Origin: Candidatus Saccharimonadota bacterium
Lineage (GTDB): Bacteria > Patescibacteriota > Gracilibacteria > Absconditabacterales > Absconditicoccaceae
DNA: 32,000 nt
Assembly: GCA_965231145.1 (NCBI GenBank)
Contig: OZ246420.1
Coordinates: 900,001-932,000, forward strand
Reading direction: 5' to 3'
Below the pieces are notes generated by a model. The model worked only from the letters and a program-made list of their open reading frames with translations. It was not told the origin of the DNA and ran no database searches. Positions 1,609 to 26,135 of the stretch are shown in pieces (within the stretch, counting starts at the first letter, position 1; each line of letters begins with the position of its first letter). The position numbers were made by a program, and so were the translations under genes.

Positions 1609-1782
1609 TAGGTTTTCTATTTATGTGAATCTGTATTGTACCACTCTTCTCCTCAAAATCAATACAATATTCCTCAAAACTACAACAACCATAATCTGGC
1701 CTTGAAACTTATTTCTTTTTCTCTTATAGTACGTACGTTCTTTTGTTTTACATAAAAAGCAAGAGATTATCGATATAAACTT

Positions 1783-2004
1783 TTCTCACTCCTGCCGGAG
1801 GGGCGTTACTTTTTAGCATATCCCTAAAAAGCAACCAAAAAGGTCTAGTCGGATATAGCACTACGAGCCTGTGAGTTATTCAAACATTGAATACGACGTC
1901 TTTCGCTGTCGCGCGCATCACAGCGACTCCAGCTCAATACTACCATTCTTATTATATTTCACGATCGCAAAGAGAAGACGTGGGGTATATCCGACGAATA
2001 AGAA
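1783..2004 (+). repeat. copy A of a ~220-nt dispersed element (candidate structured RNA / cis-leader); inverted partner at 25727-25945
   Basis: Reverse complement of 25727-25945 aligns with about 11 mismatches over ~185 nt outside a ~28-nt variable core. Hairpins are conserved (1809-1831, 1903-1926). Long-range pairing links 1848-1857 to 1986-1995. Confidence 0.8.
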
Positions 2005-2030
2005 TCTCTTTATTGATAATTTAAAATCAT

Positions 2031-3221
2031 ATGCATATAAGCCAACCCTTAGCAGCCCTCCTCCGCCCACAAAAACTCGATGAGCTAGTCGGACAAAAAC
2101 AGATCATCGAGCAAATGAGATCATATATTACTTCAGGGAAGATCCCATCAATGGTATTTCGATGACCTCCGGGCTCAGGAAAGACAACACTTGCAATAGT
2201 GCTCAGTCATGAACTCGAAGCAGACTTTGTGCATCTGTCTTGAGTCAGCAGCAAAAAAAGTGATCTCAGTGAGATCATCCATCAGGCACAGATGAACAAA
2301 TGATACAACAAAAGAACTATCGTTTTCTTAGACGAAATTCATCGTCGAAATAAAGCGCAGCAAGATGCGCTACTTCCTTATGTAGAAGACTGAACTATTA
2401 TATTAATAGGAGCAACGACAGAAAATCCTAGCTTTACTATTAACAATGCATTGCTCTCGCGCACAAAGGTAATAGTTTTCGATAAACATACCGAAGACGA
2501 TATCGTAAAATTCATCGAAAGTCACATAAGTGACATACAAAGACTCTATCCATGAATTGAGATTCCTATCGAAACCGTAGAGCTTATCTCAAGGCTCGCG
2601 AACGGTGATCTGAGAAATGCGTTAAATCTTACAGAATGATGACTCATGATCCAATGAACGTGAATACTTGATCCGCAAACTATTCTTATCGCCTATGGAA
2701 AACCAGTCTACTACGATCGCAATGGCGAAGAACATTATAATATCATTTCCGCTGTACACAAATCGCTTCGCGATAGCGACGCAGATGCAGCATGTTACCG
2801 AGTGCAAAGGATGCTGCAGTGATGAGAAGATCCACTCTACATCTGCCGTCGCCTCGTCCGCTTTGCGAGTGAAGATATCGGGCCCGCAGACAACAACGCC
2901 CTCCTTCTTGCCAACACCGTCTACGACGTCTGTGCAAAGCTTTGAATGCCTGAGTGCGACAATGCATTAATGCAATTAACACTCTATCTCGCGAAAGCAA
3001 AAAAGAATAACATCTGTTATGTTATCTCACAGGAAACGAAAAAAGATGTCATGCAGTTCGGCAATCTCCCTGTGCCTTTGCACATCCGTAATGCGCCATC
3101 AAAATTAATGAAAAACTTAGGCTACGGAAAATGATACAAGTATGCTCATGATTATGAAGATGCTAAAGTCGATCAGGAACATTTTCCTGATGAACTAAGA
3201 GGCAGAAAATATGCGGAATAA
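2031..3221 (+). CDS. rarA: recombination factor / replication-associated AAA+ ATPase RarA (MgsA)
   Basis: [20 protein letters not shown]..., Walker A [TGA]PPGSGKTT (TGA 2163-2165), [24 protein letters not shown][TGA][14 protein letters not shown] (TGA 2391-2393), and C-terminal ...[17 protein letters not shown][TGA]YKYAHDY. Thirteen in-frame TGA; stop TAA 3219-3221. Confidence 0.93.
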
Positions 3222-5194: not shown

Positions 5195-6250
5195 TTACAT
5201 ATATTTTTTCTTACAAGGTACACACACATATATTCATGGGCTCTGTTCTATAAGCATTCATTTCATCTCTAATATACTCATATGTACCAATAATTCTTCA
5301 GATGTGTAGCCGGTTTTCTCTCCGAGCAACATCATAGACGCCTCATCATACTCTTTCAGAACAGCAACTATTTTTTTCTCTTCATCATTCAAATCCTCAC
5401 GGATACTGATACAAGATACTGATACCGTTTTTCCTGTATCTGTATCAGTCATCTGTATCTGAGATTTACGGGGATAATGTTTCTCAAGAAATGAGCGAAG
5501 ATCAGCAAGAGGTGCAATACGTCCATTTACAATATATGTATTCGTTCCTCTACTACTCTCGAGAAAGATACTATTCATAGGAGCGACGACAGGCTTTTGC
5601 AAATCATATCATATATCTGCGGTAATTAGTGATCATGACTTTTCTTTTGCTTCTGGCAAAAAAATCGTATCCGAAAGAGATGCGATGATACGATTGCGCT
5701 GAGGAAATGATCGGTTTGTTGGACGGAAAGAATGTTTGTATTCTGACACTATCAATCATCCTCCCTGTACTATTTTTTCCATCAATGTTCTTTTTTCCCC
5801 ACGAAGAAACACTTTGAATCCTCATCAAAGTACTGCAATGGTAGAGATACCATACTTTAGGGAAAGTTCATGACACAACGTATCTACTCCAGGCGCCATA
5901 CCAGAGACCGTCACGATATCAAAATATTGTAGTTGCTCGAAGAGCGCTTCAAGGACTTGCTCCGCATAGGGACTCATGAGCCTAGGGCCGACAATAGCTA
6001 AAGTCGGCTTTTCAAGGACTGACAAGCTGCCTTGGTAGTAGAGCACATACGGCGCCTGCGGCGCCGTTTGTAACCTCCAGTGATAGTCAGGATCACCTTG
6101 GATAGTGGCATCTATGCTATTTTCAGCCATTCGTTGCTGGATAACATCAACGTCGACCGAAGGCAGCTCGGGAGAAGATCTTAGCTGCGCCTGGGTGATA
6201 TCATCGACAATTGAATAATAATATGCATGATAGGCTGTTTTTTTGTCCAT
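5195..6250 (-). CDS. dprA: DNA-processing protein DprA (Smf)
   Basis: Three track ORFs (5825..6250, 5604..5828, 5258..5602) fuse in one frame: ...VSGMAPGVDTLCHELSLKYGISTIAVL[TGA][TGA]GF...VQGG[TGA]LIVSEY...FPQRNRIIASLSDTIFLPEAKEKS[TGA]SLITADI... The tandem TGA is at 5822-5827. The first real stop is TAA 5195-5197. Confidence 0.92.
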
Positions 6251-19486: not shown

Positions 19487-19569
19487 CGCATCACAGAGAA
19501 CTAAAAGTTGCTTTCGTGCTATAAATAGTTACAAAGACAATAATTTTATCGTACTTGTACTGAAATTTC

Positions 19570-20382
19570 ATGGTCATGTCAAACAAAAAGTGATTTACCC
19601 TGCTTGAACTCGTCATCGCGATAGGGATTATCGGTGCATGATTGATCGCTGTTTTCGTTGTCCTCAATAGTTGATTTTCTACGATGGCACAAGCAAGAGG
19701 TCAGATCATCGCTATCAATCTTGCAAGAGAAGGGGCAGAAACTGTATTTAATCTCAGAGATACCAATCTTCGCAAACGATCAGGCAAAAAAGACCTCTGT
19801 TGGCTCAATGCAAAAAGTCTCTTTGTAACAAATCAGGAGGCGTGTGAAGATGAAAAACGAATTGGTTACTATGAAGGATGAACGGGATTTTCTTACATAC
19901 CTATGATGGCACAATACGGACAAAGTATGGTACCGATCATGAATACCTTATTTCCTGGAGAACTTGATATCTTTGATGGGCTTAACCTTGCAGACAGATC
20001 GTTTGAAGTTGCACTTTCTGCCAGCGGAGAGTTCCTGCCAGCACCCTTATTTAGTGGAAGTATCTATGATAGCGCATGTCTGAGTATCGATACAGATGGC
20101 AATAATTCCATAGGGGTAGACTGTGAATGAATCACCTATTCGCCTGCAGGAAGATTTTATAGAACGATAAATCGTGTTGGACTATTCGACAAAAGCGCTA
20201 CCGTGACTGGAGGAAATAATATGCAATGTGAAAATGGAGCTGCAACTGATACCGTATGATCAGGACCATGTGGATGACCAGAAGCAAAAGAATTTCGTTT
20301 CTGTTCTGAGGTACAGTATATCGTCGACAATGCAAAAAGAAGGGTAACAATTTGTTCTGTTATGAGCAACTTCAAAGAGTAA
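19570..20382 (+). CDS. type IV pilin / pseudopilin-like protein (270 aa)
   Basis: MVMSNKK[TGA=G]FTLLELVIAIGIIGA[G]LIAVFVVLNS is a class III signal peptide with the G|FTLLE cleavage/methylation motif. ORFs 19684..19881 and 19903..20130 are in the same frame. The C-terminal part contains several Cys. Stop TAA 20380-20382. Confidence 0.85.
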
Positions 20383-24841: not shown

Positions 24842-25690
24842 TTACGATAAAGAGAGTATCCGTGAGCTTATCATCATCATGATCCACGCCGCTAAGATCA
24901 TACCCGGGAAAAATGGAATCATGCGTTTACCTCATTCATGTGTGATAGGTATGACGACGAGTAGTAACAATGACGCTATGCATGCTACGATAACGTAATA
25001 TCGAAAATACTGTACTGTCATCATCCAAGAACCCATATCCATGAGACCACTACTTTGTACTACTTTCCAAAGCACAGCGCCAACAATAGGCGCGAGCATA
25101 ACATCTCACTGACCGATGCCTTCGGCATCCTGCTTCCATCTGAAGCGAACATAGAGTTTAGCGAGCAGATAAATGAAAACAAAACCTATAGTGAAGATGA
25201 CTACTCGCTGAGCAGCAGTAAGAAAACTAGTTCCATCATTACCATAGATCAACAGACCTGCTGCTCAGAGCAGCGCCATCCATCGAGCTACAGGATGAAG
25301 ATACATCGTTCGGATGTCATAGATCATCAGCAAATAGAGCGACCGATGCACAAAGAGCGACAAGATAAGCAAAGTAATATCTCCTCCACCATAGAGCGTT
25401 CGCCAATATGTTATTCCCAGAAACACCAACGCTGAACCAAGTTCAAGAAGCGGATACCAGTGTGAGACTGTCGCTTTACAATAGCGACACTTCCCTCTTG
25501 TCGAAAGCCACGAAAGCAATGGAAAAAGATCATATCGCGTCAGCGTATGCTTGCAATGCGGACACTGAGAACGTCAGACCAACACTGAACGAACTTTTTT
25601 TCGTGTTACTTCGGTTCCTAGTCTATGCAAAATAACTGATCAAAATGATCAGAAGAGCAAGCCTATGATAAATACAGCGATATATAACAT
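24842..25690 (-). CDS. pilD: prepilin peptidase (A24 family)
   Basis: MLYIAVFIIGLLF[G]SF[G]SVILHRL...CPHCKHTLTRYDLFPLLSWLSTRGKCRYCKATVSHWYPLLELG...LLMIYDIRTMYL...GIGQ[G]DVMLAPIVG... The track shows only an 84-aa piece. Stop TAA 24842-24844. Confidence 0.88.
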
Positions 25691-25726: not shown

Positions 25727-25945
25727 TTCTTATTCGTCGGATATACCCCACGTCTCCTCTTTGCGGTCGTGAAGTTCTAGCAAGAGTGTTAGTATTGAGC
25801 TGGAGTCGCTGTGATGTGCGCGACAGCGAAATACTTCGTAGTCAATATATGAATAACTCACAGGCTCGTAGTGCTATATCCGACTAGACCTTTTTGGTTA
25901 CTTTTTGGGGATATGCCAAAAAGTGACGCCCCTCCGGCAGGAGAA
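25727..25945 (-). repeat. copy B of the ~220-nt dispersed element (inverted relative to copy A)
   Basis: See copy A. In element orientation it lies 36 nt upstream of the pilD ATG and directly downstream of the 62-aa ORF stop (25947). Confidence 0.8.
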
Positions 25946-25946
25946 A

Positions 25947-26135
25947 TTATTTTATAGCTCCCGTTATGGTAGAGCCGCTTTGAGTTCCAAAATTTTCCTG
26001 AAATACCTTGATAAATCCTTCTGCTATACGCTTCTTTTCAGTCTTTTCACCATAAATCATGCCACCGAGAAATGAGCCGAAAGCTACCAAAATACAGATA
26101 ATAATCCAAGAGATATGCGTCGATTTATGCTTCAT
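25947..26135 (-). CDS. hypothetical small single-pass membrane protein (62 aa)
   Basis: Uninterrupted ORF with TM helix ISWIIICILVAFGSFLGGMIY. TAA stop. Confidence 0.45.
   Translation of the reverse strand: MKHKSTHISWIIICILVAFGSFLGGMIYGEKTEKKRIAEGFIKVFQENFGTQSGSTITGAIK

Follow-up and report, generated by a model that had tools for sequence, protein, structure and literature searches.

Two inverted copies of a sequence of roughly 217 nt stand in the 32-kb stretch of DNA analyzed here (the window), one ahead of rarA and the other ahead of pilD, and the locus raises the question of what kind of unit would come to occupy both positions. The explanation favored by this analysis, to which we assign a probability of about 55%, is a small, non-autonomous and probably non-coding dispersed repeat of a single Absconditabacteria/SR1-type species, in which TGA is read as sense. 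The element looks like a new, candidate sequence family among the familiar small intergenic repeats and not like a new system.

In this genome TGA codes for an amino acid instead of terminating translation, and readings of the window's open reading frames (ORFs) under the standard code are therefore misleading. Reading through TGA triples the total length of the long ORFs in the window, from 3,505 to 11,700 aa, and restores full-length RarA, MutL, PilD, RecJ, RecG and others; rarA alone contains 13 in-frame TGAs. The named homologues of RarA belong to Absconditabacteria, candidate division SR1 or Gracilibacteria, and UGA encodes glycine (code 25) in the SR1/Gracilibacteria lineages.

Copies A and B (Table 1) are the sole long repeat pair of the window, and low-stringency searches across its 32 kb recovered no third copy or fragment. 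In a gapped alignment the 216 and 217 nt are 91.2% identical, with 18 substitutions and a single indel of 1 nt, while ungapped comparison resolves the pair into an arm of 162 nt (1789-1950/25782-25943, 93% identity) and an arm of 47 nt (1958-2004/25727-25773, 96% identity). The longest perfect tract common to the copies measures 50 bp, and two others measure 29 and 27 bp. Similarity begins at CTCCTGCC and ends after CGAATAAGAA; it is abrupt at both termini, with unrelated sequence on the flanks. An earlier interpretation of this DNA, the sequence-only reading, had extended copy B to 25945, which the alignment corrects to 25943 for that end. The distances given in the same reading, 26 nt from the end of copy A to the rarA ATG (2031) and 36 nt from the end of copy B to the pilD ATG (25690), are both confirmed, the former from the sequence itself and the latter with the additional observation that PilD homologues use that ATG. 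What had been called a variable core corresponds to the hypervariable patch of Table 1, for which our own binomial estimate of the clustering is ~2e-4 per span of that width, or ~0.01 allowing for the number of positions such a span can take. Copy A in sample ERR4405441, represented by the same-species contig L010, has the B-type base (A, not G) at element position 127 (L010:1-30 compared to window 1913-1942), which is either a polymorphism or the product of gene conversion between copies.

Table 1. Coordinates in the window of the repeat copies, their predicted structures and the neighboring genes
Feature	Position	Strand	Remarks
Copy A, 216 nt	1789..2004	+	rarA 5' leader; from repeat alignment
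Copy B, 217 nt	25727..25943	-	between 62-aa gene and pilD; from repeat alignment
Hypervariable patch	25774..25789	-	7 of 19 differences, including the indel, in 16 columns
H1, terminal 5' hairpin CUCCU-GCCGG-AGGGG	25929..25943 (copy A 1789-1803)	-	predicted in both copies
H2, 12-bp stem with 7-nt loop	25897..25927 (copy A 1805-1835)	-	predicted; 4 of 18 substitutions in stem
P3 5' strand, GUCGGAUAUA	25875..25884 (copy A 1848-1857)	-	long-range stem (predicted)
P3 3' strand, UAUAUCCGAC	25736..25745 (copy A 1986-1995)	-	perfect 10-nt complement of the 5' strand
GTG ORF in copy B, 43 codons, peptide MSYSYIDYEVFRCRAHHSDSSSILTLLLELHDRKEETWGISDE	25730..25861	-	doubtful gene; weak coding signal
rarA promoter, sigma-70-type, TTGAAA-17-TATAGT	1702..1730	+	upstream of copy A; block kept in L002, L003 and L004
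rarA	2031..3221	+	26 nt downstream of copy A; by homology
pilD (prepilin peptidase)	24842..25690	-	36 nt downstream of copy B
62-aa membrane-protein gene	25947..26135	-	stop codon 3 nt upstream of copy B; orthologue immediately upstream of pilD in L009 and L011
Cys-rich ORF, 101 aa	1303-1608	-	no Pfam match; coding periodicity
23S rRNA-intervening-sequence protein (IVP/Avd-like), 124 aa	28219-28593	+	PF05635, E = 2.5e-35; between recJ and the next gene

Contigs of related genomes (RarA 84-90% identity; PilD 62-83% identity) were fetched for comparison with the two sites. Upstream of rarA, all of the relatives have a conserved block that ends in TTGCAA/TTGAAA-17-TATAGT, and in contigs L002 and L003 only ~25-60 nt lie between this promoter block and the rarA ATG, with no element. 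At the other site, the relatives have a gene of 60-66 aa followed by pilD, with a spacer of 80 nt (L009) or 3 nt (L011) and no element, while in the window copy B fills the gap between the stop codon of the 62-aa gene (25947) and pilD. Because the orthologous sites are empty at both loci and the gene order is the same in the relatives, both copies can be identified, from sequence comparison, as insertions gained after the split from the nearest sampled relatives. Copy A lies between the rarA promoter and ATG, copy B splits the operon of the small gene and pilD, and both copies are sense-oriented relative to the gene that follows. The spacers that hold them would necessarily be transcribed for rarA and pilD to be expressed, presumably by read-through. 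The proposal in the sequence-only reading of a mobile non-coding unit placed as a 5' leader is thus supported by the empty sites, by the position relative to promoter and operon, and by the breaks in assembly graphs detailed below.

The rarA leader spacer seems to accumulate insertions. An unrelated stretch of ~100 nt occurs between the rarA promoter and ATG in L004 (5375-5515), the closest relative (RarA 90%), and in L005 (3098-3238). Kinship of the element with the insert in L004, and with the sequence upstream of pilD in L008, was considered and rejected, as neither similarity was better than that of shuffled sequences.

Both copies are predicted to fold into the same set of features, consisting of H1, H2, a domain closed by the long-range stem P3, and a variable linker. 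The P3-closed domain spans ~130 nt and includes a bulged helix and hairpins H4 and H5. Stems H2 and H6 hold six of the 18 substitutions, and four of these six make two pair-preserving double changes (A-U to G-C and U-A to C-G); these compensatory changes support the hairpins as modeled. The substitutions in H2 comprise one A-U to G-C double change and two transitions, which cost the sense strand one A/C mismatch but leave the antisense strand paired through G-U. Compared to shuffled sequences, the fold of copy B has z-scores of -3.45 (sense RNA), -2.64 (antisense RNA) and -3.44 (DNA), and its stability exceeds that of 98% of randomly mutated copy A sequences. Values for copy A reach only -1.5 to -1.9, and its stability does not exceed that of copy B after random mutation (p = 0.44), an asymmetry that counts against the favored explanation. 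With strong fold statistics for B and weak ones for A, we infer that copy B is probably near the family consensus and that copy A is decaying. Hairpin H1 was scored as terminator-like; a role as terminator was rejected, because the U-run is separated from the stem by 6 nt and belongs to H2.

Under the favored explanation of a dispersed repeat, the transcripts of rarA and pilD would include the element as a folded leader (H1, H2 and the stem-closed multi-branch domain), and its effect, if any, would be on mRNA stability, processing or translation, as with other co-transcribed intergenic repeats. The leader position may equally well reflect the sites at which a compact genome tolerates insertions as a regulatory role. 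A stronger version of the latter, in which the element is a functional portable RNA (a cis leader, or an sRNA from either strand) that couples rarA and pilD, both with links to DNA uptake and recombination, to a common signal, is unlikely. The similar distances to the two start codons and the sense orientation of both copies would be expected of such an RNA, as would stems kept by compensatory changes, and the window contains many genes of DNA uptake and recombination (RarA, DprA, a pilin-like protein, MutL, PilD, RecJ and RecG). However, the nearest relatives express rarA and pilD without the element, which argues against a conserved regulator, and with n = 2 the co-orientation of the copies would arise by chance in about 1 of 4 cases. 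The preservation of pairing by both H2 transitions on the antisense strand only, which would suit an antisense transcript, likewise has a chance of about 1 in 4. Additionally, no promoter is common to or predicted inside the element, and it has no match in Rfam.

Evidence from independent assemblies bears on whether the two copies belong to a mobile family at all. Logan contigs of the same species from three other samples (ERR4405439, ERR4405441 and ERR7850080) recovered three of the four junctions at 99.8-100% identity to the window, namely the right junction of A (L010), the right junction of B (L006 and L007) and the left junction of B (L012). As the junctions are reproduced in independent contigs of the same species, an assembly artefact is excluded. 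Logan contigs come from de Bruijn graphs with k = 31, and no 31-mer occurs in them twice (PMC12424806); they therefore stop k-1 = 30 nt inside a repeat. The copies in the window have 30-mers in common solely at element positions 45-94. Contig L012 stops exactly at element position 30 and has the B-specific bases C19 and G27, while L007 opens precisely with the final 30 nt of copy B, its first base being B-specific; in L010, from the same sample as L007, copy A keeps the A-specific base at the point where L007 begins. Breaks at both termini with B-specific bases go beyond what the A/B pair alone produces and are good, though indirect, evidence that at least one further copy with B-type termini lies in other flanks, and so for at least three copies. 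The break points could in principle reflect strain variants instead of a third copy; a strain without the insertion would break the contig at the element boundary and not 30 nt inside it. The break points also confirm the exact ends of the unit.

The copies directly seen number two, within 32 kb, and the other genomes and collections searched contained none, which is what would be expected if the pair were the product of a single event, whether segmental duplication or gene conversion from one spacer to the other, or of misassembly, with no mobile family behind it. This account is quite unlikely. It requires two independent gains, as the relatives have the element at neither site, and it is at odds with the exact ends at both sites, with the junctions reproduced in independent assemblies, and with breaks k-1 nt inside both termini at B-specific bases that A and B alone could not produce.

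The searches for further relatives define the current limits of the family. Exact 19-22-mers of four conserved blocks had no match in GTDB, JGI metagenomes or IMG/VR, and these negative results are bounded by the fact that the collections do not contain the window's own genome. No match to the element was found by blastn among phage and plasmid records, and ~110 kb of contigs from relatives and from the same species contained no further copy (blastn word size 7 and nhmmer --max). Six-frame translations of the element, which would reveal copies annotated elsewhere as spurious ORFs, had no counterpart among 5.8 billion proteins. The sampled regions of the related genomes also have no comparable repeats of their own. 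With no copy found in relatives or public collections, the repeat family is only a candidate family. Nothing in the window matched Rfam at the gathering threshold, and around the copies matches were at chance level (E > 0.9). The Pfam search identified no transposase, recombinase or reverse transcriptase domain in any protein of the window, and no report of such repeats in TGA-recoded CPR bacteria was found in a literature search.

The alternative that the element exists for the sake of a peptide depends on the GTG-initiated ORF within it, for which the sequence-only reading had given lengths of 70 aa (copy A) and 43 aa (copy B). Both frames exist under the standard code (1871..2083 in copy A), but the end of the 70-aa frame is wrong because TGA is a sense codon; the copy A frame instead continues to 2353, a total of 160 codons that run out of frame into and through rarA. 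The same reading had counted five changes in the first 24 codons, three of them at third positions, and a recount gives six, with five at third positions. Its claim of a 1-nt indel that shifts the frame was accurate, and the indel, a deletion in codon 29 of copy A, recurs in the independent contig L010. In the frame of copy B, 12 codons are changed, of which five are synonymous and seven conservative (E/D, D/E, L/F twice, K/E, T/P and N/Y), for a BLOSUM sum of +2, and part of the variable core consists of synonymous leucine codons. The synonymous count alone corresponds to p = 0.22 with randomized substitution positions, and a joint test with the BLOSUM sum gives p ~0.02, the best of the six frames and not significant after correction. 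The copy B frame may thus carry a weak signal of conservative substitution.

It is improbable that the element is a miniature cassette for the 43-aa peptide, intact in B and frameshifted in A, in which the upstream hairpins and long-range stem would give the peptide's mRNA a structure like that of small-toxin transcripts. Beyond the conservative codon changes, such a cassette would account for the position of the substitutions inside the ORF, of which only 1 of 14 is at a second codon position (adjoining the indel), and for the geometry of P3, in which sequence immediately upstream of the GTG pairs with the last codons of the ORF. The statistical signal is, however, lost on correction for six frames, the GTG start has no recognizable ribosome-binding site, and an independent assembly bears out the deletion in copy A. 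At this base composition, ~14% of frames would by chance remain open for 43 codons (our own estimate), and no homologue of the ORF was found among 5.8 billion proteins (six-frame query) or 1.84 billion representatives (exhaustive HMMER). An intact, conserved reading frame with homologues, by which a small-protein gene would be recognized, was not found. The peptide is also not hydrophobic, unlike type I toxins.

The dispersed-repeat explanation can be compared to several known classes of element. The ends of the element, CTCCTGCCGG... and ...CGAATAAGAA, are not complementary and form no terminal inverted repeat, and the one inverted pair of 10 nt lies inside the element (positions 60-69 and 198-207). 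No target-site duplication was found, as the flanks of A (TTCTCA on the left, TCTCTT on the right) and of B (AATTT and ATATAA) include no direct repeat. A classical MITE derived from a DDE transposon was rejected on both counts.

The nearest comparisons are the small intergenic repeats BOX and RUP of Streptococcus pneumoniae, ERIC/IRU of enterobacteria, Correia/CREE of Neisseria and bcr1 of Bacillus cereus. Like these, the element falls within 100-250 nt, is probably without coding capacity of its own, occurs in short spacers beside genes in whose transcripts it is presumably carried, is predicted to form stable hairpins and a long-range stem, and appears to be lineage-restricted and moved in trans. 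Unlike them, it resides in a TGA-recoded CPR bacterium and has been seen in two copies with at least one more indicated, where the known families number tens to hundreds, and it has no sequence similarity to any of them. Correia, RUP, ERIC and bcr1 have terminal inverted repeats and target duplications, both of which are absent here.

The anatomy is in some respects closer to that of PATEs, the derivatives of IS200/IS605, which also have asymmetric ends, no inverted terminal repeats and no target duplication. Predicted hairpins occur near the left end of the element (H1 and H2), and a candidate hairpin, CACG...CGTG, with which an alternative pairing competes, lies 22 nt from the right end. Strand-specific insertion of the PATE kind would explain the fixed orientation of the element. 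Insertion of IS200/IS605 elements takes place 3' of a fixed sequence of four or five nucleotides. Copies A and B have different nucleotides next to their left ends (CTCA and ATTT, or TCTCA and AATTT), unlike PATEs, and an IS200/IS605-derived PATE with a fixed target was rejected on this basis; the right flanks are TCTC (A) and ATAT (B). H1 also begins at the first base and not ~20 nt inside as in PATEs, the window encodes no TnpA or TnpB, and Rfam returned no omega-RNA or HEARO-type match for it.

The ends of IS110 (bridge RNA) and OMEGA (TnpB/IscB) systems offer a further likeness, in that the element is a structured non-coding unit of ~200 nt with one hypervariable patch, no inverted repeats and no target duplication, but unlike these systems it has no recombinase or nuclease gene adjoining it. 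A guide or bridge RNA was rejected, as complementarity between the element and its flanks did not exceed that of cross-controls and the patch has no target in the window. The copies are also not a template/variable pair of a diversity-generating retroelement (DGR), as their substitutions are of all types and not adenine-specific and the window has no reverse transcriptase domain, and a group I or II intron was rejected for terminal nucleotides that do not fit and the lack of a match in Rfam. The element would be functionally comparable to the BOX, ERIC, Correia and bcr1 types or to PATEs while a member of none.

As for how the repeat would move, mobilization in trans by an enzyme encoded elsewhere may be proposed. 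Strand-specific insertion, through a single-strand HUH/Y1-type transposase or an RNA-mediated route, would be a better fit than DDE cut-and-paste, given the asymmetric, hairpin-rich anatomy without terminal inverted repeats or target-site duplication. A bolder form of the proposal, in which the element is a previously undescribed, strand-specifically inserting unit of TGA-recoded CPR bacteria that acts as a portable leader or as carrier of the 43 codons and rewires rarA and pilD within one species, is doubtful. It should be noted that a 681-aa gene at a contig end in L009 (20309-20852) has a weak match to RVT_1 (reverse transcriptase), and retroelements thus occur in this clade; no link between this gene and the element was found.

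The weakest of the alternatives is a switch based on the proposal of the sequence-only reading that recombination between the copies would flip the intervening 23.7 kb. This is mechanistically possible for inverted copies of 217 bp at 91% identity with perfect tracts of 50, 29 and 27 bp, but highly improbable and supported by no data. Element-free relatives have genes in the same order and orientation across both sites, the junctions in all independent contigs match those of the window, the proteins of the window include no invertase or recombinase, and the segment contains ordinary housekeeping genes. Contig SRR32417865_252 lacks both elements and has rarA and pilD convergent as in the window, with collinear gene order, so the arrangement in the window is ancestral and no inversion has become fixed. 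Homeologous exchange would also be disfavored by 9% divergence and the presence of a MutL gene.

Several features of the surrounding sequence were observed in the course of this analysis. The DNA-uptake and recombination genes rarA, dprA (5195-6250), mutL, pilD, recJ and recG occur within 30 kb (2031-31938), and a gene for a pilin-like N_methyl protein (19555-20382) is in the same cluster. The spacer between recJ and the next gene is only 145 nt (L009) or 30 nt (L011) in the relatives, which identifies the region of the PF05635 gene (Table 1) as a lineage-specific insertion of ~0.5 kb. CTAG-rich motifs flank this gene, and there is no reverse transcriptase or target gene nearby. Upstream of the rarA promoter, the mismatches of the 101-aa Cys-rich ORF against L004 (20/48/20) peak at third codon positions, and this periodicity indicates a real coding sequence. 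The segment of ~440 nt that includes the ORF (1207-1649) is common to L004 and L005 and absent in L002 and L003, and a strong hairpin (1284-1261, minus strand) follows the ORF.

Absconditabacteria/SR1 are ultra-small, recoded and episymbiotic, with compact genomes, and to our knowledge selfish non-autonomous elements have been little documented among them. If the favored explanation is right, the element would be the first described small dispersed repeat family in the group. Nothing about it is surprising in kind, and its value is mainly for annotation and as a strain marker; it breaks short-read assemblies of this species. It also marks a very recent change in the genome, being absent from relatives whose RarA is 84-90% identical. 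For the organism, the insertions would have added ~217 nt of predicted folded RNA before two genes of DNA uptake and recombination, a set on which such organisms presumably depend.
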